64,000 nucleotides of DNA from positions 1 through 64,000 of IMG/VR virus record IMGVR_UViG_3300012933_000388; one strand, 5' to 3'. Of this stretch, positions 1 through 43,440 are shown piece by piece. The stretch comes from a virus. Taxonomy: Duplodnaviria > Heunggongvirae > Uroviricota > Caudoviricetes. The notes under the pieces are model-generated. The model did not search any database. It was not told the origin of the DNA and saw only the letters and a program-made list of their open reading frames with translations. Within the stretch, counting starts at the first letter, position 1. Each line of letters starts with the position of its first letter. The position numbers and the translations under genes are program-made.

Positions 1-22
1 GTGCCGTGGTAACTTCCCTTCA

Positions 23-622
23 TTGATTCCTAAGACTGATCAAGAGCGTGTGCAGAACTTGAAGAAGGAAATTGTATCAGCTCAGAATGATGTGTTCGAA
101 GTCACTGAAAAGATGGAAGGTTCTTCAATGACTGTCTACCAGATGGTCGTTGATGGTGAAATGACATTCGGTGTTTGCTCACGTAACATGGATCTGAAAG
201 AAACACAAGGTAATGCTTTCTGGGATACTGCTCGCAAAGATGACATCGAAGCTAAGATGAAAGCCGTCGATGAGTTCTGGTCATTCGCTATTCAAGGTGA
301 GTTGATTGGTCCTGGCGTTCAAGGTAACATCTATGGTTTGAAAGAACCAATGTTTGTTGTGTTCGATGTATATGACATTCAAGCGGGCGAATACATCCCA
401 CCAGATGCTCGACGTGAGTTGATTGATAATATGGGGTTGAACCATGTGCCAGTGTTGAACGAGCGTTACACTTTGACTCAAACTGTTGATGAGATCCTCG
501 CTTCTGCTGAGGGTCAATCGACCTTCGCTAAAGTGGAACGTGAAGGTATCGTGTTCAAACAAGCGATGGGCGGGTTCTCGTTCAAAGCGATTTCGAACAA
601 GTACCTCCTAGGTGAAAAGTAA
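23..622 (+). CDS. RNA ligase, Rnl2 family (T4 RnlB-like nucleotidyltransferase domain, no C-terminal domain)
   Basis: Motifs EKMEG (I, approx residue 30), FAIQGELIGPGVQGN (III), EGIVFK (IV) and FKAISNK (V) parallel T4 Rnl2 KIHG / FGEFAGPGIQ / EGYVLK / AIKCKN. The ORF is open to the window edge, so the start may be TTG at 23 or lie upstream of the window. Confidence 0.6.
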   Translation: MIPKTDQERVQNLKKEIVSAQNDVFEVTEKMEGSSMTVYQMVVDGEMTFGVCSRNMDLKETQGNAFWDTARKDDIEAKMKAVDEFWSFAIQGELIGPGVQGNIYGLKEPMFVVFDVYDIQAGEYIPPDARRELIDNMGLNHVPVLNERYTLTQTVDEILASAEGQSTFAKVEREGIVFKQAMGGFSFKAISNKYLLGEK

Positions 623-1013
623 TATGAATAGCCGAATAGAAGAACTGGCTAATGATTCGTTTGCATATGCGCAGACGCGTCATAGTCAGCATTCACCTGA
701 ACTAATTCGCACATTCACATCGAAGTTTGCTGAGCTTTTGATCCGCGACGTAATGGAAACACGGAACATGGGCGAGAGCGACCGCGAGCATCTTTGTTCG
801 TACTATGGTCTTGAGTATAAGCCAGTCATGATGAAGCATCCGGAGTATGGGGATCTATATCAGTTGGATGAATGGGACGAGGCAGTAAACGCTGGTTATT
901 TCAATTCAGATGATGGCTCAGGATATTGGGCAACGAAGACAGAATATGCATACGTCTCTTGCTGGGACGAATGCCCAGAATGGGCAACTCACATATTGTG
1001 GTTCAACAAGTAA
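612..1013 (+). CDS. hypothetical protein, long member of the KFAELLIR paralog family
   Basis: ORF 133 aa. Contains SKFAELLIRDVMET, a block shared with five later small ORFs. Followed by a terminator. Confidence 0.45.
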   Translation: MKSNMNSRIEELANDSFAYAQTRHSQHSPELIRTFTSKFAELLIRDVMETRNMGESDREHLCSYYGLEYKPVMMKHPEYGDLYQLDEWDEAVNAGYFNSDDGSGYWATKTEYAYVSCWDECPEWATHILWFNK

Positions 1014-1030
1014 CTATTTTCTCCCCTTTT

Positions 1031-1058
1031 GCGCCCGCTTGTCGGGCGTTCTTTTTTT
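1031..1058 (+). terminator. rho-independent terminator
   Basis: GCGCCCG-cttgt-CGGGCG stem followed by a T7 run. Confidence 0.6.
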
Positions 1059-1074
1059 GGTGTATAATACTTGT

Positions 1075-1599
1075 ATGGAAACACTAGCACAACACATGAA
1101 GACACGTCACATGGACGTCAATCTCCACCACCCAGTATTGGATGAAGTGGAACGTGTTGCTACGTTCTATCTTTGGAACCTCAGTGGGCAGTTAGTTGGC
1201 TACCAACAATACAGGCCAGAAGGCGAGAAGAAGCCAAACAACAACCCACGAGAAGGTAAGTATTACACATACAGAAAGCAGCCTACGGTTGTTGTATGGG
1301 GTGTAGAATCGCTTCACCTTACACCGCATGTTGTATTCCTGACCGAGGGTGTGTTCGACGCTGCTAGGCTGACAGAACGTGGTGTTAGTGCACTTGCAAT
1401 CCTCAGTTGTAACACAGGCTGGGACTTACGCAACTGGTTAAGCATGCTCAATCGAAAGGTTGTTGCTGTTTGTGATGGCGATAAGGCAGGCGCGCAGCTT
1501 GCCAAGTTTGGTAATGTCAGTCTTTGTATGCTTGGGGGTAAAGACCTTGGAGATGCTGATGATGCGACTGTTGATATGCTAGTGAGGGAGTTTGTGTAA
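1075..1599 (+). CDS. Toprim-domain protein
   Basis: VVFLTEGVFDAARL (catalytic Glu) and VAVCDGDKAGAQLA (DxD) Toprim signatures. In-frame ATG at 1075 just after the terminator and a TATAAT at 1063-1068. The table ORF 910-1599 overlaps the previous gene, so the shorter start is preferred. Confidence 0.5.
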   Translation: METLAQHMKTRHMDVNLHHPVLDEVERVATFYLWNLSGQLVGYQQYRPEGEKKPNNNPREGKYYTYRKQPTVVVWGVESLHLTPHVVFLTEGVFDAARLTERGVSALAILSCNTGWDLRNWLSMLNRKVVAVCDGDKAGAQLAKFGNVSLCMLGGKDLGDADDATVDMLVREFV

Positions 1600-2210
1600 T
1601 GCCAGCCGTGCACCTATCAGGTCAACACAACGTAACATTCGTCCACATTCCTAAGTCTGCTGGTACTAGTGTAGGCAACTGGATAGTGGATCATGCTGAC
1701 GAGAGTGCTGTAATGTTGTGGTGGAATCATCCAACACTCGCTCAGATGAGACGTACTTGCAGTACCAACTTTTCAATTGCGGTGGTGAGGAATCCATGGG
1801 ACAGACTTGTTAGCATGTATCATTATGCTCAGTTTGGCACAAGTCCTCATCCAGCTATCGACTCTGATATGATTCACGAGATGTTTATCAGAGCAAACAA
1901 CTATAAGGTTTGGCCAACGTTCGATGAGTGGGTGTCCAACCTACCTTCATTCTACACTACACCAAACCAACAGGGCATGGATATGTCGCAGATGTATTGG
2001 ATTGGGGATGGAGTCGACTTGGTGATCAAGATGGAGACCATCGAACAGCAGTTTGAGGTGGTACAGGAAATGTTTAAGTGTGGTGATCCACTACCAAAGC
2101 AGAATACAACCAACCATGGTCATTATAGCAAATACTATGATGCTCGAACGAGAGATCTAGTTGCGAGATGGTTTAAGCGTGACATCGAAGCATGGCACTA
2201 TGAGTTTTAA
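1599..2210 (+). CDS. PAPS-dependent sulfotransferase-family protein
   Basis: 5'-PSB-like FVHIPKSAGTS and 3'-PB-like VVRNPWDRLVSMY motifs typical of carbohydrate/NodH-type sulfotransferases. ATGA-type coupling to the upstream gene. Confidence 0.5.
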   Translation: MPAVHLSGQHNVTFVHIPKSAGTSVGNWIVDHADESAVMLWWNHPTLAQMRRTCSTNFSIAVVRNPWDRLVSMYHYAQFGTSPHPAIDSDMIHEMFIRANNYKVWPTFDEWVSNLPSFYTTPNQQGMDMSQMYWIGDGVDLVIKMETIEQQFEVVQEMFKCGDPLPKQNTTNHGHYSKYYDARTRDLVARWFKRDIEAWHYEF

Positions 2211-2223
2211 TTAGGAGACAGAT

Positions 2224-2661
2224 ATGACAAGTATGATTTTAGTTCGTGGATTGCCAGGCTCTGGTAAGTCTACTGTTGCGAAGACTTTGATTGGTTTCTA
2301 CATGCACGTGGAAGCGGATATGTTCTGGATCAACGACTGTGGCGAATATGACTTCGATATCAAACGAATCGGAGAAGCACATTCGTGGTGTCAGAACCGA
2401 GTGTATGAGTTGATGGCTGCTGGGTTTAGTGTTGTTGTGTCTAATACATTCACAACATTGAAAGAGATGGCACCATACTTTGAAATGGCCCGCGACTTTG
2501 ATTGTGTTCCACAGATCATTGCCTGCCAAGGACAATATGGTAGCATCCATGGTGTGCCTGATGAGGCAATTACAAGAATGCGAGATCGATTTGTTTGGGA
2601 CGTGTCGCCATTGTATGATCTTGAATCAGCTTTTTGGCAAGATCGTACCTTGCAGCCTTAG
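2224..2661 (+). CDS. P-loop kinase, T4 polynucleotide kinase (Pnk) kinase-domain-like; no phosphatase domain
   Basis: Walker A VRGLPGSGKST. SVVVSNTFTTLKE parallels T4 Pnk GVIISDTNLNPER. 145 aa. Confidence 0.5.
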   Translation: MTSMILVRGLPGSGKSTVAKTLIGFYMHVEADMFWINDCGEYDFDIKRIGEAHSWCQNRVYELMAAGFSVVVSNTFTTLKEMAPYFEMARDFDCVPQIIACQGQYGSIHGVPDEAITRMRDRFVWDVSPLYDLESAFWQDRTLQP

Positions 2662-3277
2662 ACTTCGACCCGAGTACAACAATAATGTGCTCGGGAGTAG
2701 TCATAGCAACACACCAACCAGCTGCATTAGTGAACCCAGTCTTTGACACAGTAACATGGGTAAACTGAGTTAACAGATTATAGTTGGTATTTTGAAGGAG
2801 GGTTAGATGAGCCCTCTTTCCTTTTGGCATAACGGTTTGTACTGTAGGATGAGACGCAGCTCGTATCTCATCAAACTTCATCGCATATGCAATTAGCAGA
2901 GCAACATCCTCAGCAGTCGATATATTCATGCCGAGGCCAGATGGATCAATGAACCTAGTATTGGACATACCAAGCTGTCGAGCTCTAAAGTTCATAGCCT
3001 GGATGAATTTATCGCGACCATATGTTGCTGCGATCGCCTCAGCGGACTTATTATTGCTTTGCACTAGCATGGTGTCGATCAGGTAACGATCGTCGACTCC
3101 CAACTCCAAAGCAACAATTGCCGTCATCAGCTTAGTGATGCTAGCTAGTGGTCTTTGTTGGGATGAATCTTGTTCTACTACTACTTTGTTGTGTCGTATG
3201 TCATATACGAGAATCGATTCCTTGGCTTGCAAGGCTGTAGCGAAAAACAATGAGAAGATGATTAGAAGTCTTTTCAT
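2570..3277 (-). CDS. secreted D-alanyl-D-alanine carboxypeptidase/endopeptidase (PBP-like, peptidase S11)
   Basis: Signal peptide MKRLLIIFSLFFATALQA. Active-site SxxK (ASITK) and SxN (QSNN) motifs. 3' end overlaps the convergent kinase gene by about 90 nt. Confidence 0.6.
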   Translation of the reverse strand: MKRLLIIFSLFFATALQAKESILVYDIRHNKVVVEQDSSQQRPLASITKLMTAIVALELGVDDRYLIDTMLVQSNNKSAEAIAATYGRDKFIQAMNFRARQLGMSNTRFIDPSGLGMNISTAEDVALLIAYAMKFDEIRAASHPTVQTVMPKGKRAHLTLLQNTNYNLLTQFTHVTVSKTGFTNAAGWCVAMTTPEHIIVVLGSKSKAARYDLAKKLIQDHTMATRPKQIDLAFL

Positions 3278-3392
3278 AATTAGTGCCCCGTTTATGTCCT
3301 CCCACCTGGCGTAGTGGGATGTAGTAGGACGGGGCCACTCCTTTGTACACCTATCGTAAGTTTAACGGTCCTAAGGTAGGTGTGTTCTTTAG

Positions 3393-3755
3393 TTACCAGG
3401 CCTTGCAGGACCAGTAACGTGCTTTATCTTTTGGACCAGGGTTGTCACAATTGTGACGAGCTCTGAATGAAGAACGACGTGCAGGAATATTCTTCTTGAT
3501 CGTCATGTTCTTATCGCCGAAGTTTACTTTCTTAGCCTTGCCATCACCATCAGGATCGACGTAGACTTTAGACTTCTTAACATCGCCAGCCATTGGCTTG
3601 TTGAGAGGAACCTTCTTACCTTGGTAAGTCGCTTCATCGATTTCAGATTCTTCCTTAACGCAAGAATCTTCAGCGCATGGCTTTGTTCCAGCCTTACGCT
3701 TATACCCCTTCCAACAGGTACAATTCTCACTGATAAAGTATTTGAAAGACAACAT
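3393..3755 (-). CDS. hypothetical Lys/Cys-rich protein downstream of the tail fiber gene
   Basis: ORF 120 aa on the same strand, directly after fiber gene 3785-7078. Possible fiber-associated or assembly protein. Confidence 0.35.
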   Translation of the reverse strand: MLSFKYFISENCTCWKGYKRKAGTKPCAEDSCVKEESEIDEATYQGKKVPLNKPMAGDVKKSKVYVDPDGDGKAKKVNFGDKNMTIKKNIPARRSSFRARHNCDNPGPKDKARYWSCKAW

Positions 3756-3784
3756 CGATTATTCCTTTTTGAGTTTATTTATCG

Positions 3785-6700
3785 TCATGCGCCACGCAAC
3801 ATACAACCGTTGAACCAAGTAATAGCTGAGTTATTAACTGCCGTAACAGTTACGTTCCCGCCCGAACCTTGCTGAACGTATATTTCAAAGTAATCACCAG
3901 TGCCGTTTGCATACACCAATGAGCTTACTTGCATTGCCCAGAAGTTGGTAGCAATTTGCGCTCCTCTCTGGTTTATGCCACGCTTGTATTCTGTACCGTT
4001 TTTGTAAAGAATAATCATTATTTCGCCAGTGCCACTGGCACCATCTAGTCGAACTTCTGCATTCAATTGATAATAGCCTTCAACCGTAGGGGTGAATCTC
4101 GAGCTAGCGTAATTATTATTGGTGTCAAACTCTTCTACTTGAAATAGGACCTTGGTCTGAACATCAGTTGGAATTGTTTGGAGTGTGTTGTTTGCATATG
4201 CGGAGAATGCAGGACCATTGACTGCTTGCTTACCACCGACGGTGATCGGGCCTGGAACATTTAGCGCGCCCGTATCAGATAAAGAAAATATTGTTGCACT
4301 ATACGCACTGTTAATAATTTCTATTCCACCAACACTATTCAATCGGAACGATTTAGTGTTTGCGGTTGCACCAGCAGTTTTATTTGTGACCTTTAAGAAG
4401 TCAGCATACCCAGTACCGCCTTGCGTATTGGAAGCATTAACAATTAATGGATAACCGGTTGGAGTTGCACCAGCATATGTCAATGTTAAAGTATTGCTGT
4501 TGACGTTGACGGCAGAGATAGCACCGACGAAGCTAATGTTGTTTGAAGTGAGTGACGCAACACCATTAGCATATGCATACTGATTGGCAGCAATGCCGCT
4601 AAGGTATAGTGCGTTGTTAGCAGTGCCGGATATGTTGTCTGGTATCACGATCCCTGACACTTGCTCAACGTTAACAATAACTGCTGGTGTACCAGGTACT
4701 GTTGGTGTTGTACCGGCTGCATATGAAACCAATTTCACATGGCCGCCTTCGGATGAGTGCATCACCTGAACTCTATCACCAGCGTTGACAGTCACCATGA
4801 ACGGAGTAACAGCAATCAAGCTTCCAGGATCCTGACCAGTGTTCTTTCTATTGACTGAAAATCTACTATTAGTGTTTGTTTGATCGGTGCCGTTGATTCG
4901 AATCCACACATTGACGTCGTCGTCGGAATTACCATTATTTTCATACTGGTTGCTATATTCAATGTGGTATGTACCGCTATGTGCAAAGACTATATCGTTG
5001 TTGCTACCGACCGTTACGCCGTTTGTTCCATCATATGATGCAGTAATAGGAACGACGTATGCGTTGGTTGTATTAGATAACGCAACGTTAGCGCCGTTAT
5101 AGTAGAACGCCCCAAAGTATCCAGTAGTGAAGTTGTTAGATGTTCCGTTCTGGTTAATCCACTGGCTAAGCGCAGTGTTGTATGTCAACACTTGATTGTT
5201 CAACGGACCAGTAATAGTAACATCAGTCAGACTATCGATCGTAGTTGGAATCGTTGGCTTATTCTTAATGAAGTCAATCGCTAATGTATTCGATTGATTC
5301 CAATCAGTTTGAATCTGAGATGCAGTGGCATTAGTCCAATATACTCCTGTACCATTGGAGGCTAACACTTGGCCAGCAGATCCTTTAGCATTGTTTGCTG
5401 TAATCGATACAAGGGTTGCGTTGTTGGTATTAATGCCTGTTGAGTCGATAGTTGCTGTAGTGATTAGTGTATTGCTACCTACAGGCGTTGTTTGGAATGT
5501 TATCTTTGTGCCTGTATTGGCAGTATAGAAGTCTTCAGCAGCGTTCAAGTTGATACGAACAATACTACCTACGTACGTGTTGCTACCTGCCGCCCACCCT
5601 TGAGCTGTCAGACGCAACAAAGTATCGCCCGACAGCGTTGGTAGCGGTGAAGCTGCTGTTCCTCGAGCAGCCCTACCAGCAACAGATGCATATGCACCAG
5701 CACCATATGCATCAAAACCAATACGTGCTGGCTGCCCATCTTGCGCAACCGCTTGGATTAACGATCCAGAGAAGTTGCGAGGTTGAATGTCTCCTGTACT
5801 GGATCCGACTATTGTTAATGCCGCCTGTGATGTTAGTAGTGTTGCTGGAGTGTTGATAGTTACCAGACCCTCACGAGTTACACCGAATGTTTGGTTGCCA
5901 GTATCATAGCTGTTTACTACAATCGGGCGGTTGATGACAAGATTGCCAGTCCCTAATGTCGCTCCAATATAAAACGTTGCTTCTGTATTAGTTAACTGTA
6001 TGTAATTGTTTTGCAATAAAAAGTTACCAACACGAAGACCGCCATTAGATTGTTGTGTTGTATTTGCAATCGCAATATAGAATATACCATTAGCAAGTGT
6101 TAACTTTTGATCTGGAAACCCTGTCGTCTGATCTGCAAATGTAACAGAATTACCACCAACCCAAATGGACTCCCAGCGGTTGGTATTATTGCCGAGCGAG
6201 TATGTTAAGCTAGTATTCGGAATGATGGATGATGGAACGTGCAACCAGTCGACTGTTGTATTAGCGCTGATTACTTGATTACTAATTGTAATAGTTGTAC
6301 CGTCAATCTTTACACCACCCTTAGTGGTAGTAGAAGCAGTAGGGAGGACATAACCACCAGGGCCCCCGCCCGTTGGATCTTGTGCGGTCCACTTCTTGAT
6401 AGATTCATTATATGTAAGCACCTGGCCGTCTGTAGCACCAAGAACAGACGAACGAGCAACATCATCCAAGTCTCTTAACCATACTGCACCACCGCCTGGC
6501 CCGGTCATGGAAATCTTACCAACCCAACCTTCCAACAATTTCAACTTCTGTTGAATGTCCTTCAAGTCTCTACCAGTAACTTCTGGAGCAGGCTGGACGA
6601 ACATCGAAGGCGGTTGACCCTTCTTCTTAATTTTCTTAGCTGCCTCTTTGGCAAGTGATGGCTCTTCAATGGGCGCAAGGATCGCTTCCTCAATCACTTC

Positions 6701-7078
6701 TGGAATCTCAACAATACCTTCCAGGACATCCTCAACCTGTTGACCTTGGTCCGCATCCTCGGCGATAGTCACTTGTGGTTCGTCGGAAACTGCATTAGCC
6801 TTGATATCGTCAATCTTCGCGAGCACAGTCGCAAAACGATCTAACAGAGCCTGTTCTTCCGCGCTCTTTTGCTTTTCTTCAGCCATCAGCTTGCTAATCT
6901 GGCCAGAAAGGTCAGCGAACGTAGATTTGAAAACAGCCTTACGTTCTTCTTGTAAAGCAATCTGTTTCTTTTCTTTTTGTTCTTCAGCTATAATCTGGTC
7001 AAACACAGACTGTTCTGTCTCTACACCGAGACGTTCGTTCATTTTGACAATGAGGCGGAGTTCTTTTAGTTTATTCAT
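3785..7078 (-). CDS. tail fiber protein
   Basis: 1097 aa. N-terminal coiled-coil (EEQKEKKQIALQEERK...), repeated QVLTYN..W units, and a long Gly/Thr/Asn/Ser-rich beta-type body. Late-type AGATAAATATT motif 6 nt before the ATG. Confidence 0.7.
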   Translation of the reverse strand: MNKLKELRLIVKMNERLGVETEQSVFDQIIAEEQKEKKQIALQEERKAVFKSTFADLSGQISKLMAEEKQKSAEEQALLDRFATVLAKIDDIKANAVSDEPQVTIAEDADQGQQVEDVLEGIVEIPEVIEEAILAPIEEPSLAKEAAKKIKKKGQPPSMFVQPAPEVTGRDLKDIQQKLKLLEGWVGKISMTGPGGGAVWLRDLDDVARSSVLGATDGQVLTYNESIKKWTAQDPTGGGPGGYVLPTASTTTKGGVKIDGTTITISNQVISANTTVDWLHVPSSIIPNTSLTYSLGNNTNRWESIWVGGNSVTFADQTTGFPDQKLTLANGIFYIAIANTTQQSNGGLRVGNFLLQNNYIQLTNTEATFYIGATLGTGNLVINRPIVVNSYDTGNQTFGVTREGLVTINTPATLLTSQAALTIVGSSTGDIQPRNFSGSLIQAVAQDGQPARIGFDAYGAGAYASVAGRAARGTAASPLPTLSGDTLLRLTAQGWAAGSNTYVGSIVRINLNAAEDFYTANTGTKITFQTTPVGSNTLITTATIDSTGINTNNATLVSITANNAKGSAGQVLASNGTGVYWTNATASQIQTDWNQSNTLAIDFIKNKPTIPTTIDSLTDVTITGPLNNQVLTYNTALSQWINQNGTSNNFTTGYFGAFYYNGANVALSNTTNAYVVPITASYDGTNGVTVGSNNDIVFAHSGTYHIEYSNQYENNGNSDDDVNVWIRINGTDQTNTNSRFSVNRKNTGQDPGSLIAVTPFMVTVNAGDRVQVMHSSEGGHVKLVSYAAGTTPTVPGTPAVIVNVEQVSGIVIPDNISGTANNALYLSGIAANQYAYANGVASLTSNNISFVGAISAVNVNSNTLTLTYAGATPTGYPLIVNASNTQGGTGYADFLKVTNKTAGATANTKSFRLNSVGGIEIINSAYSATIFSLSDTGALNVPGPITVGGKQAVNGPAFSAYANNTLQTIPTDVQTKVLFQVEEFDTNNNYASSRFTPTVEGYYQLNAEVRLDGASGTGEIMIILYKNGTEYKRGINQRGAQIATNFWAMQVSSLVYANGTGDYFEIYVQQGSGGNVTVTAVNNSAITWFNGCMLRGA

Positions 7079-7153: not shown

Positions 7154-7519
7154 ATGTTTTTTGGTAAATCTGCACAATTGCAACACGCAGAGACGCGTAT
7201 TGATTACTTGTCAAAAACAATCGATGAGTTGAACGCTCAGATCAAACAGATGCGTGAAGATGCGGAGAAAGAAAAAGAATCCGATCTACAAACTTCCACA
7301 TTTGCGATCGACTTTAATATTATGCGTGCATTTGCAATTGAGCGTAATATACACAACGGCGTTGTTTGTACTATTGTTGGACACTTCATTTCGGAGCCAG
7401 TCGCATTTACCGATGGTAACGTTGCTGCTAAAGAAGTGACTCGTGAATGGTATATGTATTGCAGCCAAGAACAACACGAGAAGTTGGTTGCAGAATTTAA
7501 CGCATACAAAAAGAAATGA
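7154..7519 (+). CDS. hypothetical protein
   Basis: ORF 121 aa with SD AAGAGG 8 nt upstream. First gene of the + strand early block. Confidence 0.4.
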   Translation: MFFGKSAQLQHAETRIDYLSKTIDELNAQIKQMREDAEKEKESDLQTSTFAIDFNIMRAFAIERNIHNGVVCTIVGHFISEPVAFTDGNVAAKEVTREWYMYCSQEQHEKLVAEFNAYKKK

Positions 7520-7703
7520 TTGCTCGAGCATTACTGACCTTCTTGGTCTTATTTGCTGTCTTTTACTTTGGTATTAATGGTTGGCGCCACATGGCTGGCA
7601 AAGACCAATGGCAGTTGGTGAAATCCGTAACTTACAGTATAATCTGTTCAGTGCTTACAATTGTGGTGCTGACCTTCTTTGTAATTTTGTTCTAAGGAAA
7701 AAT

Positions 7704-8495
7704 ATGAAACGCTTATTTGTAATGTTGATGGTAATTGGTGGCGCATTGCTCACTGGTTGTACCCGTATCGAGACTGGTACTGTTGGTTTGCGTGTCGATA
7801 TGTCACGACAGATCCAAGGTAATGAATTACAACCTGGTACATGGAACCAGACGTTGATCGGTAGTGTGCTTGAATTCCAAGTGCGATCGATTCCTACAGG
7901 TTGGGAAAACTTGACTCCACAAACCGCTGATAACTCTACACTGAAAGACTTTGACGTCAATATTGTGTATGAAGTTAATCCAGCATCTGTCTCTGAATTG
8001 TGGACTACACAATCACGAAGCTTCCACACATATGAGCATGGCGATTATATGCTGATGCGTAACTATATGTCTCAGGTATTGAGCTCTGCTGCAGCTAAAG
8101 CTGTTCGTAAGTACAAGGCATTGGAAGTTGCTGACAATCGTGAGAACATCGAAAAAGCAATCCACGACATCATGGTCAATATGTTGACTGAAGAAAAGCT
8201 CGAGAAAGCTCTTACTATTAGCCAGGTTCGTGTCACTAGTGCCACTCCTGCCGATGACATTGTAGCATCTGCTAACAACGCTGTCCGTGCTCAGAACGAT
8301 CTGAAGACCAAGCAAGTCGAAGTACAGATTGCTCAACAAGAAGCTATCCGTATCCAAACTTTGAACAGCAACTCACAAGCTATTCCATACATGAATGCAA
8401 TGGCTCAAATGGAAATTGCTAAAGCTATCCGTGAAGGTAAGGTCCACACAATTGTTGTACCTCTAGACTTCAAGGGTATTGTAAACGTCAAGTAA
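7704..8495 (+). CDS. lipoprotein, SPFH/band-7-like
   Basis: In-frame ATG with SD AAGGAAA. Signal plus lipobox LLTGC. Body resembles an SPFH domain (GTVGLRVDMSRQIQGNELQPG...). Confidence 0.4.
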   Translation: MKRLFVMLMVIGGALLTGCTRIETGTVGLRVDMSRQIQGNELQPGTWNQTLIGSVLEFQVRSIPTGWENLTPQTADNSTLKDFDVNIVYEVNPASVSELWTTQSRSFHTYEHGDYMLMRNYMSQVLSSAAAKAVRKYKALEVADNRENIEKAIHDIMVNMLTEEKLEKALTISQVRVTSATPADDIVASANNAVRAQNDLKTKQVEVQIAQQEAIRIQTLNSNSQAIPYMNAMAQMEIAKAIREGKVHTIVVPLDFKGIVNVK

Positions 8496-8884: not shown

Positions 8885-9066
8885 TGGATATTAAAAAGAA
8901 AATTACTGCTGCTCAGAAACGAGTACAGAAAAAGATCGATGCGTCTTTTGCTAAGTTGGCAGAAGAAACCAAAGCTGCATTTGAAGCAGCTCGCACAGAG
9001 AAGAAATAACCCCCGCAGTGTGCGTAGGGGCAATGTCAATAAGTCCTCTCCGATAAGGAATATATT

Positions 9067-9318
9067 ATGAAACAACGTGGATTTACACTAATTGAGTTGA
9101 TGGTAGTTATTACTATTGGTATGGTTGTTGTCAGTATTGGCCTTGGATTCCTTGGTGCAACTTCTGGCAATAGCAATATCAGCGTAGGTATCAACGGTGT
9201 AACCGAATCCCGTTGTATTGAGGGTTACAAGTTTGTACTTAGTGCAAGCCATGAGGCGCCTCGTCAGATCATTGACGAGTTCGGTAAGGGTGTTCGATGC
9301 AACGCAATGGTGAAATAA
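9067..9318 (+). CDS. type IV pilin/pseudopilin-like protein (prepilin N-terminal methylation motif)
   Basis: N-terminus MKQRGFTLIELMVVITIGMVVVSIG is the classic prepilin peptidase site (G/FTLIE) plus hydrophobic helix. SD AAGGAA. Confidence 0.6.
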   Translation: MKQRGFTLIELMVVITIGMVVVSIGLGFLGATSGNSNISVGINGVTESRCIEGYKFVLSASHEAPRQIIDEFGKGVRCNAMVK

Positions 9319-9319
9319 T

Positions 9320-10279
9320 ATGGAACAAAAAGTGAAACGCGGCTTCAAGCGTAAAACAATTGAGCAAACAATTCGCAACCACATCAAAGGCTGGTTGGCT
9401 TCAATCGATGACATCGAATTGCGTGATGAAGTTAAGAAGCACTATATTGTAACTGGTGGTGCTATCACTTCTATGTTGCTTGGCGACTTGCCGAACGATT
9501 ATGATGTATACTTGGATGATGTTGATGTCGCTGCTAAGCTGGCCAACTATTACATCAGCCGATTGTCTACACCTGACAATGAGAAGACTGCTGTTCCGAT
9601 CGTTGAAGTTCCACCAGAACGTAACCGTGTGACTATTAAAGTTAAGTCATCTGGTGTTGCTGGTGAAGATATCAATCAAGCAGACTACCAATACTTTGAA
9701 CAGTATGCTGATGGCGGTCAACGCTCTGCTTCATACTTGGATGCCATGGCATCGCGCGAGACAGGTGCATACAAAGCACTTGCTATTACTACTAATGCAA
9801 TCACGTTGTCTGATAAGACTCAGATCGTGTTGCGCTTTGTTGGCCCTGCCAACGTTATTCACAAGAACTATGACTTCGTCCACACAACCAACTACTTTAC
9901 AGAGTCAGAGGGTGCTGTATTTAACGAACCTGCTCTGGAATCCATCCTTGCCCGAGAACTCAAGTATGTCGGTAGTCTCTACCCGATTTGTTCGATCTTC
10001 CGGATCAAGAAATTCATCAAACGTGGGTGGACAATTACTGCAGGTGAAATGCTCAAGATTGCTTACGACATCAGCAAACTCGATCTCGACAATCCGCTAG
10101 TATTGCAAGAGCAATTGACTGGTGTTGATGCTGCATACTTTGCTCAGATCCTTCAGTTGATTCGACAAGAAGGTAAGCCAATCGATCGTACATATTTGTT
10201 CGAACTGGTTAACCGAATCTTCGATGAAGATTGGGAAGTTGAGCAAGCGATTAACGAATCTGGAATTAATTTAGCATGA
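9320..10279 (+). CDS. predicted nucleotidyltransferase-fold protein (tentative)
   Basis: IVTGGAITSMLLGDLPNDYDVYLDD fits a pol-beta-type hG[GS]...DxD pattern. 319 aa. Confidence 0.3.
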   Translation: MEQKVKRGFKRKTIEQTIRNHIKGWLASIDDIELRDEVKKHYIVTGGAITSMLLGDLPNDYDVYLDDVDVAAKLANYYISRLSTPDNEKTAVPIVEVPPERNRVTIKVKSSGVAGEDINQADYQYFEQYADGGQRSASYLDAMASRETGAYKALAITTNAITLSDKTQIVLRFVGPANVIHKNYDFVHTTNYFTESEGAVFNEPALESILARELKYVGSLYPICSIFRIKKFIKRGWTITAGEMLKIAYDISKLDLDNPLVLQEQLTGVDAAYFAQILQLIRQEGKPIDRTYLFELVNRIFDEDWEVEQAINESGINLA

Positions 10280-37241: not shown

Positions 37242-37445
37242 ATGAAAATCGAATCCATGTTTTACATCGCTTTAGGTACAGTAGTCGATGAGATTGAGAA
37301 GGCAGATTCCTACAAAGGGTTTGTCGAGTTGGCGGAAACAACAGATGAAGCCAACCGCTATGCTCGACGTGCTCTGAAGTACAAGGCTAAGGCAATCGTT
37401 GGTTTTGATCGTGAAATGGACCGTCTGGTAAAGGAATACAAATGA
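37242..37445 (+). CDS. hypothetical protein
   Basis: In-frame ATG with SD GGAGAA. Confidence 0.35.
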   Translation: MKIESMFYIALGTVVDEIEKADSYKGFVELAETTDEANRYARRALKYKAKAIVGFDREMDRLVKEYK

Positions 37446-37909
37446 AACGCGGCGAAATGTTAGACAAGATGCTATTGATTGTGACGAACGCTCACCATGG
37501 TCAATTCGACAAAGGCGGAAGCCCATATATCCTCCACCCACTAAAGGTCATGCATTATCTGAAGACGGATGATGAAGAGCTGATGTGCATGGCACTAGGG
37601 CACGACGTAATTGAGGACACTAAGACGACTTATGCTGAATTGCGGGAAGCAGGGATCTCTGAGCGTGTAATCAGTGCAATCAAATGCCTGACAAAGCAGC
37701 CAGGCCAGACTCTGGAAGAATATAAGGACGTGATCTTCAGCAACACAGATGCAATGCGTGTTAAGATGGCCGACTTACGTCACAACTCAGACATCCGTCG
37801 TCTGAAGGGCGTCACAGAGAAGGACCTCGCACGTATGGCAAAGTACCATATGTTCTATCTGGAAATCAAGGCCAGATTAGAGTTGCCTATTGAACATAGG
37901 TCAGTATAA
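37442..37909 (+). CDS. HD-domain small alarmone hydrolase (RelA/SpoT-type (p)ppGpp hydrolase)
   Basis: HHGQFDKGGSPYILHPLKV, ALGHDVIEDT and ADLRHN motifs of the RelA/SpoT HD hydrolase domain. 155 aa. Confidence 0.6.
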   Translation: MKRGEMLDKMLLIVTNAHHGQFDKGGSPYILHPLKVMHYLKTDDEELMCMALGHDVIEDTKTTYAELREAGISERVISAIKCLTKQPGQTLEEYKDVIFSNTDAMRVKMADLRHNSDIRRLKGVTEKDLARMAKYHMFYLEIKARLELPIEHRSV

Positions 37910-42882: not shown

Positions 42883-43026
42883 TGAAAAGCATGAAGCAAG
42901 CAGCTAATTTTAAGATGCGTGGTAGAATTACCATGCGTTGCCATTGCCGCTGCTGCGAGGTTTTTAATCCGAAGTGGGCATATCGTATGAAAATGGCTGC
43001 CAAGGATATAAAAGAATTGTTGTAAT

Positions 43027-43080
43027 CCCTTCAAAGAGAAGGACTTCTGGACGCGGGTTCGACTCCCGCCATCTCCACCA
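43027..43080 (+). ncRNA. ssrA: tmRNA acceptor piece of a circularly permuted (two-piece) ssrA gene
   Basis: GGAC-GCGGG-TTCGACT-CCCGC-CATCTCC-ACCA (43049-43080) is near-identical to the E. coli tmRNA 3' end GGACGCGGGUUCAACUCCCGCCAGCUCCACCA. The 5' boundary is uncertain. Confidence 0.6.
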
Positions 43081-43218
43081 AAAGTAATCACCGAAGTGAC
43101 TAGGAATAAAAGCGGTCATCGAGTTAGGGCATCAGGTCAAGACTGTGTTAGTAGTGTGGACAGCCTCCCTAACCGACCACTAAGGCGAGTGGTTGAGAAT
43201 GCAACGATTACTTTTGAT

Positions 43219-43440
43219 GGGGATGCCATGGTTTCGACAGGGGTAGATATTAGAGACGGCAACACGGTAGGCGATGACCGCAAATCAAGCAAATAAAAGT
43301 AACTGCAAACGAAAGCTCTTACGCATTGGCAGCCTAAACGCTGACTAGGGTTTCGGATGGTTTCCTCGTAACAGAATAACCATCCACTAATATATCAGAC
43401 ACGTTGCCCATTAGAGGCCCTGTATGGTCTAGCAGTACCA
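43219..43440 (+). ncRNA. ssrA: tmRNA coding piece (5' tRNA-like half, pseudoknot region, tag ORF ANESSYALAA)
   Basis: GGGGATGCCATGGTTTCGACAGGGG parallels the ssrA 5' end GGGGCUGAUUCUGGAUUCGACGGG. Resume codon GCA at 43305 reads GCAAACGAAAGCTCTTACGCATTGGCAGCCTAA. No T-arm or CCA lies downstream. The 3' boundary is uncertain. Confidence 0.55.

Follow-up and report, generated by a model that had tools for sequence, protein, structure and literature searches.

An exchangeable sulfotransferase gene beside putative RNA-repair enzymes in a mosaic phage accessory region

Why would a phage carry a sulfotransferase gene between those of a Toprim protein and a polynucleotide kinase (Pnk)-like protein, downstream of an RNA ligase, and do these enzymes serve one pathway or several? 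The question is raised by the first 2,661 nucleotides of a viral sequence of 64,000 nucleotides, the whole of which is referred to here as the window. A sequence-only reading of this DNA had offered three accounts of the gene set, namely RNA repair by the ligase and kinase, a sulfated hypermodification of DNA, and sulfation of a host envelope glycan. The explanation that we favour, with moderate confidence in it as a whole, is that a distant T4-like phage carries two unrelated functions side by side in a hyper-mosaic accessory region. The region is probably expressed early, and the phage probably comes from fresh water; its tmRNA points to a betaproteobacterium as a possible host.

The genes and their order are borne out by coordinates and profile matches: the four enzyme genes and an additional reading frame, orf133, lie where they had been placed, all on the plus strand. 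Profile searches matched PF09414, PF03567 and AAA_33, while Toprim_2 scored just 19 bits, under its cut-off of 22.1. The features are as follows.

2-622 (feature 1..622), plus strand: Rnl5-type RNA ligase, 3' part of the gene (PF09414)
612-1013, plus strand: orf133 (phrog_14149), overlapping the ligase stop by 11 nt
1031-1049, plus strand: terminator-like GC hairpin and T-run (consensus scan only)
1039-1068, plus strand: sigma70-like promoter match, TTGTCG-18-TATAAT, overlapping the hairpin (consensus scan only)
1075 (or 1096)-1599, plus strand: Toprim protein (phrog_849, Toprim_2)
1599-2210, plus strand: sulfotransferase (PF03567, Sulfotransfer_2)
2224-2661, plus strand: Pnk-like kinase (AAA_33)
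37442-37909, plus strand: SpoT/RelA-hydrolase-type HD protein (TIGR00691, HD_4)

The hairpin, with a 7-bp stem containing six GC pairs plus TCTTTTTTTG, and the overlapping promoter match likely mark a boundary at 1031-1068 between a ligase-orf133 unit and a Toprim-sulfotransferase-kinase unit. Within the second unit, the Toprim stop codon overlaps the sulfotransferase start (TAATG), and only 13 nt, with an AGGAG ahead of the kinase, separate the sulfotransferase from the kinase gene. The three genes are thus tightly packed and probably co-transcribed, so that a functional link among their products is conceivable. In the first unit, orf133 matches phrog_14149 over its C-terminal 59 aa (E=9e-18) and gave no match in a Pfam search. 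A megablast search of positions 1-3400 against cultured phages returned no match, and PADLOC yielded weak, uninformative matches only.

The sulfotransferase signature (HIPKSAGTS ... RNPWDRLVS) proved to be real. The protein matches PF03567, a family of carbohydrate sulfotransferases (PMC11625862, PMC8205485), over profile positions 6-251 of 252, with a score of 46 bits (cut-off 22). It has the sulfotransferase fold (as defined in PMC11625862), and across 26 homologues the residues that characterize the family are retained. In the 5'-phosphosulfate loop HIPK19SAG22TS, which aligns with HIQKTGGTT of HS6ST, G22 is invariant and a lysine or arginine at position 19 is conserved; in the PxxRxxS motif that binds the 3'-phosphate (R64-N-P66-W-D-R69-L-V-S72), R64, N65, P66, W67, R69 and S72 are invariant, as is H44, a candidate catalytic base between the two PAPS motifs. 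The lysine loop, the PxxRxxS motif and the intervening histidine are shared with HS2ST, HS6ST, CHSTs and bacterial polysaccharide sulfotransferases, although identity to solved structures is 12-23%. Unlike those enzymes, the window protein is a compact 203 aa, predicted to be cytoplasmic and PAPS-dependent, without a membrane anchor or acceptor-binding inserts.

Such a gene had been described as very unusual in a phage, which holds for cultured phages, where relatives occur in 3 of 50,697 records, but not for environmental viruses, where at least 403 IMG/VR contigs encode them (an earlier IMG/VR scan queried with this protein alone had found none). Phage sulfotransferases have already been reported as auxiliary genes (PMC10580990, PMC8290583), and published work describes their function as unclear. 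The GC content of the gene (0.451) equals that of the genome (0.44), and there is therefore no compositional sign of recent acquisition.

Comparison with related phages reveals that the sulfotransferase gene is a replaceable passenger in a slot that separates Toprim from kinase. In one relative (L102; Toprim protein and kinase both 79% identical), the slot is empty and the Toprim stop overlaps the kinase start, whereas in another (L101; 75% and 70% identical, respectively) it is occupied by a fatty-acid desaturase; a third locus (L090) carries a sulfotransferase there, as the window does. An overlapping stop/start junction is kept in all four cases. Furthermore, NAMPT takes the upstream position in a phage whose kinase is 76% identical, and another phage, with a 92%-identical ligase, lacks the Toprim, sulfotransferase and kinase genes altogether within 9 kb downstream. 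When 160 loci of related sulfotransferases were searched by tblastn with the window ligase, Toprim protein and kinase, no conserved linkage emerged. The gene cluster is a mosaic and not one pathway.

This architecture bears directly on the proposal that kinase and sulfotransferase together build a sulfated hypermodification on hydroxymethylated bases of DNA, to which we assign a next to negligible probability. The proposal draws on gene adjacency and on analogy to the kinase-initiated 5-hmdU pathways (PMC5889632), and about 40 kb of phage genome lies outside the window. It is not supported, however, because the kinase is unrelated to the 5-HMUDK enzymes of thymidine hypermodification in ViI, M6, SP10 and PhiW-14, with which the locus shares solely a phage P-loop kinase beside a group-transfer enzyme. 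The match to M6 gp54 is confined to the P-loop (18 aa, E=0.18), which excludes an identification as 5-HMUDK, and an HMM of the kinase family found nothing in the M6 cluster. Nor was a thymidylate-synthase-like gene or dUMP hydroxymethylase seen among the 104 window ORFs, and the sulfotransferase is itself swappable. It is likewise extremely unlikely that the sulfotransferase acts independently of the kinase on nucleic acid, be it a sugar or hydroxymethyl group of phage DNA or an RNA end; an acceptor on phage DNA would, if true, amount to a sulfated DNA hypermodification.

Two other ways of coupling the neighbouring genes fare little better. If the adjacent kinase acted as an APS kinase, the pair would form a self-contained sulfation module in which PAPS is fed to the sulfotransferase. 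Modules with an APS-kinase-like partner do exist in viruses (IMG/VR loci L105, L111, L119-123, L128 and L130-133), and their phage- or virus-borne sulfotransferases belong to the same family, at 29-38% identity. In contrast to these, the 64 kb of the window contain no APS-kinase-like or HxGH nucleotidyltransferase partner, and the kinase that adjoins the sulfotransferase is of another family: it has the P-loop alone in common with the viral APS-kinase-like proteins and no match to PF01583 at E<0.1, ruling out CysC. We consider such a module very unlikely. Almost no credence attaches to a sulfotransferase that works within RNA repair, co-expressed with the Toprim protein and kinase and sulfating an RNA hydroxyl (5'-OH or 2'-OH). 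Its operon-like packing, through the TAATG overlap and the AGGAG spacer, would fit, as would the fold and analogous chemistry common to sulfotransferases and P-loop kinases; yet such a reaction is without precedent, the slot is empty or desaturase-filled in close relatives, and a Pnk-like kinase, ligase or Toprim protein accompanies 0 of the 160 related sulfotransferase loci.

The RNA ligase and small kinase, on the other hand, have the appearance of a conventional RNA-repair set of a phage. The ligase frame is open to base 2, and the gene therefore extends past the window edge; the part within the window is the nucleotidyltransferase domain, and the N-terminal domain would fall upstream, for a full-length protein of about 342 aa. 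This part matches PF09414 at 104 bits (cut-off 27; E=1e-29), TIGR02306 of the DRB0094 type over model positions 134-340 of 341 (NCBIfam), and Naegleria NgrRnl (PDB 5cot/6vt5) over chain residues 137-335 of 340 with approximately 55% identity (E=1e-45). It is a nucleotidyltransferase with a lysine-adenylylation motif I, and motifs I, III, IV and V align with those of NgrRnl (KMEGSS/KLDGSS, QGELIG/QGEIIG, FVVFDVYD/FYLFDIYD and REGIVFK/REGLVFK, ligase first; FSFKAISN is identical in both).

The initial assignment of an Rnl2-type ligase lacking the Rnl2 C-terminal domain was therefore wrong, the ~55% identity to NgrRnl placing it in Rnl5. The Rnl5 family is defined by an N-terminal domain and has no C-terminal domain. 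The PF09414 match reaches residue 196 of 206, with the stop codon at 620-622, leaving no C-terminal appendage, as in NgrRnl and Deinococcus DraRnl, and relatives of 339-345 aa at 92-97% identity have an N-terminal PF21189 domain together with PF09414, the window copy being cut by the edge. A truncated Rnl2 can be rejected: every strong PDB match (E about 1e-45) is to an NgrRnl entry, and among the listed matches Rnl2 is absent and the others are far weaker (E >= 5e-6). The window enzyme differs from those two Rnl5 ligases in being phage-encoded and in having KMEG, rather than KLDG, as motif I. Rnl5 seals 3'-OH(RNA)/5'-PO4 nicks in duplexes (PMC4408790), and no physiological substrate is known for these ligases, the type enzymes included (PMC5397189).

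The kinase, of 145 aa, has a P-loop and a Pnk-like kinase fold (AAA_33, E=2.5e-12). As had been read from the sequence, no phosphatase domain is present, and the fused 3'-phosphatase of bifunctional T4 Pnk is thus missing. The same holds for its more than 1600 stand-alone homologues, which among the matches listed are 127-165 aa long and consist of the kinase domain alone in 120 of 120. D32 and R122 are invariant across 34 homologues and may correspond, from their position only, to D35 and R122/R126 of T4 Pnk, which would make them the general base and the lid arginine. Compared with T4 Pnk and Clostridium thermocellum Pnkp, these proteins (about 130-145 aa) are stand-alone with no fused phosphatase, and the window kinase resembles T4 Pnk in sequence no more than marginally (E=0.01).

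The suggestion that ligase and kinase form an RNA-repair pair with a phosphatase from elsewhere is supported because in five further lineages of phages kinase homologues adjoin an RNA ligase gene together with one for an HD protein or a metallophosphoesterase (Pyxpy02, ACP17, an rV5-like phage, L097 and L099) and because an HD homologue is encoded in the window at 37442-37909 (TIGR00691, E=7.6e-15; HD_4, E=2e-4). In blastp, the latter matches the HD proteins next to the kinase and ligase of Pyxpy02, L097 and ACP17 at 1e-10, 5e-8 and 2e-6, respectively. A search of the window for homologues of the metallophosphoesterases of rV5, Pyxpy02, ACP17 and L099 gave no match. By analogy with these neighbourhoods, the HD protein is a candidate trans-acting partner for 3'-end healing, though as an enzyme of (p)ppGpp-hydrolase type it may be unconnected with RNA ends.

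Whereas the domains, the folds, the conserved motifs and the architecture of the slot are shown by these comparisons, the substrates and biological roles of all the enzymes are inferred. RNA with 5'-OH ends would be phosphorylated by the Pnk-like kinase, and structured RNA with 3'-OH/5'-PO4 nicks, for example cleaved tRNA, would be sealed by the Rnl5 ligase; healing of the 3' ends would fall to a further enzyme, perhaps the SpoT-type HD protein at 37.4 kb. Jointly the three would reverse damage from host RNA-cleaving defences. Such a system would differ from tRNA repair by T4 Pnk and Rnl1 in that the partner ligase is Rnl5 and the phosphoesterase is unlinked. If the assignment is right, a three-part unlinked kit (Rnl5 ligase, mini-Pnk and possibly a SpoT-type HD protein) joins the phage counter-measures against RNA-cleaving defences, and Rnl5 ligases gain a candidate role.

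The Toprim protein of the second unit is a short, stand-alone protein of 167-174 aa, depending on the alternative start at 1096, with a DnaG-like core and the motif E...DxD (FLTEG, CDGD). It belongs to phrog_849 (E=3e-39) and is 57% identical to gp218 of Synechococcus phage B3 and about 39% identical to 189-aa T5-like proteins. A bona fide DnaG-type primase was considered and rejected: no zinc-ribbon or zinc-finger family was matched in profile searches, the weak DnaG matches cover the Toprim region, and, like Toprim_2, the dnaG model stays below its cut-off (19 bits for a required 283).

What, then, does the sulfotransferase modify? Because its gene is swappable cargo and its family travels in other viruses with APS-kinase-like and sugar-modifying genes, the hypotheses narrow to PAPS-dependent sulfation of a glycan or metabolite. 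In about 45 low-GC metagenome loci, the genes around its relatives are mostly for additional sulfotransferases, GT2/GT1/GT4/GT25 glycosyltransferases, sugar-nucleotide epimerases/dehydratases and polysaccharide-synthesis proteins, and in viral loci APS-kinase-like genes, additional sulfotransferases, GDP-mannose dehydratase and glycosyltransferases are found among the adjoining genes. Family membership and these censuses make a glycan a plausible acceptor and our best guess. As an orphan O-sulfotransferase, the enzyme would draw on host PAPS and sulfate a hydroxyl of a cytoplasmic acceptor, most probably a sugar carried by a precursor of the envelope or of an exopolysaccharide, or some other glycoconjugate.

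Counted against a glycan, however, are the modest identity (25-40%) of the relatives in the census, in a family whose specificity is not predictable from sequence, and the setting of the closest phage relatives (37-39%), which adjoin NifU/IscA, radical-SAM enzymes and unknowns. Neither glycosyltransferase nor sugar-nucleotide genes came to light in the 64-kb window. The enzyme may instead modify something other than a carbohydrate, for instance a small metabolite, a lipid, a signalling molecule or a protein, in the service of host takeover or counter-defence; this is a possible, though less than probable, alternative to the glycan that we favour. At 203 aa, the compact sulfotransferase is suitable for acceptor screening.

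The five ORFs within 1-2661 of the window run in the same direction and are closely packed:

2-622 (+): ligase fragment, its frame open up to the window's first base (PF09414 E=1e-29; phrog_968, positions 156-392 of 398)
612-1013 (+): orf133, whose sole match is a PHROG of unknown function
1075/1096-1599 (+): Toprim protein (phrog_849 E=3e-39; Pfam Toprim_2 19 bits, below the cut-off of 22.1)
1599-2210 (+): sulfotransferase (PF03567, 46 bits against a cut-off of 22; phrog_3347)
2224-2661 (+): kinase (AAA_33 E=2.5e-12; phrog_2071 E=1e-32)

As these Pfam and PHROG scores indicate, Toprim_2 itself excepted, the domain calls of the sequence-only reading are real and well above chance, and its observation on this cluster was largely right apart from two descriptors, one for the sulfotransferase and one for the ligase. 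All parts of the cluster are new members of known families, and together they read as a mosaic and not as one pathway.

The sulfotransferase gene lies between the Toprim and kinase genes, a position whose content varies among the close relatives compared. Locus L090 (Toprim 77%, sulfotransferase 74% and kinase 72% identical) has the same order of Toprim, sulfotransferase and kinase as the window, L101 (Toprim 75%, kinase 70%) carries a fatty-acid desaturase between Toprim and kinase, and in L102 (Toprim 79%, kinase 79%) the kinase start overlaps the Toprim stop (GTATGA). The following gene, be it kinase, desaturase or sulfotransferase, always starts on the Toprim stop codon, with the junction form GTATGA / GTGTAATG kept. 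Since this is so in every case, the sulfotransferase sits in an exchangeable slot, which is located at the following positions:

window 1597-1601 and 2208-2226
L102, approximately 400-420
L101, approximately 7180-7190

The other genes show varied surroundings as well. Upstream of a 76%-identical kinase in another phage lies NAMPT instead. In locus L184, from a phage whose ligase (9001-10026) is 92% identical, the 9 kb downstream of the ligase contain no Toprim, sulfotransferase or kinase gene. An HD_4 protein (186-650; 72% identical to window 37442-37909) is encoded 8 kb upstream of that ligase, with homologues of window genes from 34.9-36.7 kb just downstream of HD_4, which means that the ligase has changed its position compared with that genome. 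Within the cluster, at 1031-1068, a terminator-like hairpin and a promoter-like site overlap (consensus match only) and probably separate ligase-orf133 from Toprim-sulfotransferase-kinase. Two phage sulfotransferases at 37-38% identity have different neighbours again: NifU/IscA beside one, and beside the other a methyltransferase and a cytidylyltransferase-cupin protein, with an AAA_33 kinase, DSPc and Metallophos 6 kb off. The Toprim protein belongs to a recurrent, stand-alone family of about 170-190 aa (Synechococcus phage B3 gp218, 57% identical; T5-like proteins annotated 'DNA primase', 39%); the window protein keeps the Toprim acidic motifs and has no zinc-binding domain.

The ligase had been described as missing the Rnl2 C-terminal domain, which is a misclassification rather than an anomaly. 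Against Naegleria gruberi NgrRnl it shows approximately 55% identity, spanning residues 137-335 of the 340-residue chain with all nucleotidyltransferase motifs aligned, and it falls into TIGR02306, the DraRnl type (NCBIfam). Such Rnl5 ligases by definition have a signature N-terminal domain and no C-terminal appendage (PMC4408790), and relatives at 92-97% identity are proteins of 339-345 aa composed of PF21189 and PF09414. Members are widespread among phages, with 334 records from cultured phages and upwards of 6660 proteins from metagenomes.

Gene context in other phages supports the proposal that ligase and kinase serve RNA repair. An AlphaFold model of the kinase (pLDDT 92.5) is nearest to polynucleotide 5'-kinases; its family exceeds 1657 proteins and is represented in 628 records of cultured phages, and each of the 120 homologues listed is a stand-alone protein of 127-165 aa. 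In Pyxpy02 the kinase is overlapped by an RNA ligase, and genes for an HD protein and a calcineurin-like phosphoesterase are close by; ACP17 has RNA ligase, HD and metallophosphoesterase neighbours, and rV5-like MaxBurger has RNA ligase, kinase and phosphoesterase together. Locus L097 (kinase 65% identical) reads kinase, DUF4884, HD_4, one ORF and then an Rnl1-type ligase, while L099 reads kinase, Metallophos and an Rnl1-like ligase. Such repeated pairing, which involves ligases of three different families, supports a putative role of the kinase in 5'-end healing. For 3'-end healing, the HD protein at 37442-37909 is a homologue of the kinase- and ligase-linked HD proteins (blastp 1e-10 to 2e-6), but its SpoT/RelA-hydrolase type makes it no more than a lead. 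A search of the window for metallophosphoesterase homologues gave none.

A second proposal, that kinase and sulfotransferase produce a sulfated DNA hypermodification, finds no such support. M6 gp54 is the 5-HMUDK (PMC5889632), a kinase of phage 5-hmdU hypermodification, and the window kinase matches it over 18 P-loop residues only (E=0.18); the kinase-family HMM gave no match to the M6 cluster, and no thymidylate-synthase-like gene occurs among the 104 window ORFs, with approximately 40 kb of the genome lying outside the window.

The sulfotransferase conserves all the features listed as defining PF03567, namely the PSB lysine, the PxxRxxS helix serine and the fold (PMC11625862), and its invariant H44 is probably the catalytic base. 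Since it carries no signal peptide or membrane anchor as read from sequence, it should be cytoplasmic. 'Very unusual in a phage' is true of cultured phages alone: relatives occur in only 3 of 50,697 cultured phage records, yet in at least 403 IMG/VR contigs. Matches among cluster representatives number 7435 at E<=1e-3 and 23 at E<=1e-30, and phage sulfotransferases are already known as auxiliary genes whose biological function has been termed unclear (PMC10580990; also PMC8290583).

The best guess for its acceptor is a carbohydrate, in line with the third proposal, sulfation of a host envelope glycan. Neighbours of its relatives in approximately 45 low-GC metagenome loci (149 ORFs) include 19 further Sulfotransfer_2, 10 GT2, 13 GT1/GT4-type and 5 GT25 matches, 8 epimerases, 5 GDP-mannose dehydratases, polysaccharide-synthesis proteins and 2 APS kinases. 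Among the neighbours in the viral set (32 loci, 126 ORFs) are 8 Sulfotransfer_2, 7 APS_kinase and 7 radical SAM matches, plus sugar-nucleotide and glycosyltransferase genes. A viral family of approximately 262-299 aa, in which an APS-kinase-like domain is fused to an HxGH (cytidylyltransferase-like) nucleotidyltransferase domain, is an immediate neighbour of the sulfotransferase at 13 of the 80 viral loci and 4 of the 80 metagenome loci; sulfotransferase-adjacent members are:

L005, 493-1296
L111, L119-L123 and L130-L133

This fusion is a candidate for a minimal PAPS synthase encoded by viruses. At L105:4556-6651 (38%-identical sulfotransferase) the genes run from kinase through two sulfotransferases to nucleotidyltransferase. 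In other viruses, then, the pairing of kinase and sulfotransferase is meaningful and looks like PAPS supply. The window kinase, from another family, has the P-loop alone in common with the viral APS-kinase-like proteins, and no APS-kinase-like gene was found in the window. Its sulfotransferase is an orphan that would depend on host PAPS. These viral APS-kinase/sulfotransferase modules and the cargo-slot architecture are the most useful by-products of the analysis.

The phage is a distant T4-like myovirus, with baseplate genes gp5/6/7/8/25/53 as well as gp32, gp59 and a gp33-like gene. Its gp6 best matches, at 36-40%, are Caulobacter Cr30, the Sinorhizobium phiM12 group and Stenotrophomonas DLP_6; no close relative was found among cultured phages, and freshwater metagenomes are the source of related contigs. 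A phage-borne tmRNA gene (42974-43397, +; Rfam beta_tmRNA 140 bits against a gathering score of 84, tmRNA_permuted 147 bits; ARAGORN tag peptide VTANESSYALAA) is of a type that hints at a betaproteobacterial host. The stretch between 7 and 57 kb abounds in counter-defence genes; there a Pfam census recorded an Acb3 CBASS inhibitor (E=1e-55), Lar restriction alleviation and a TnsA-like endonuclease, along with DUF932, a YAcAr SLOG domain, PAAR and Band_7 (7581-8495). The segment 28001-30000 is a low-GC island (GC 0.32; window 0.44) in which GC skew is strong.

Downstream of the cluster, a minus-strand block (2570-7078; peptidase, orf120 and a 1097-aa tail fibre) is not at this position in L101. 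The peptidase (2570-3277, -) is a secreted PBP7/PbpG-like DD-endopeptidase, unusual for a phage (Peptidase_S11 E=5e-30, PRK11669 E=2e-32), with a signal peptide and the SITK, SNN and KTG motifs kept; its 3' end converges on that of the kinase with a 92-nt overlap. Homologues of orf120 (phrog_7595; 3393-3755, -), 56-57% identical, lie a few kb from a sulfotransferase gene in two marine contigs that are not otherwise related, L048 and L137, a nearness that may be coincidence or reflect a shared phage lineage.
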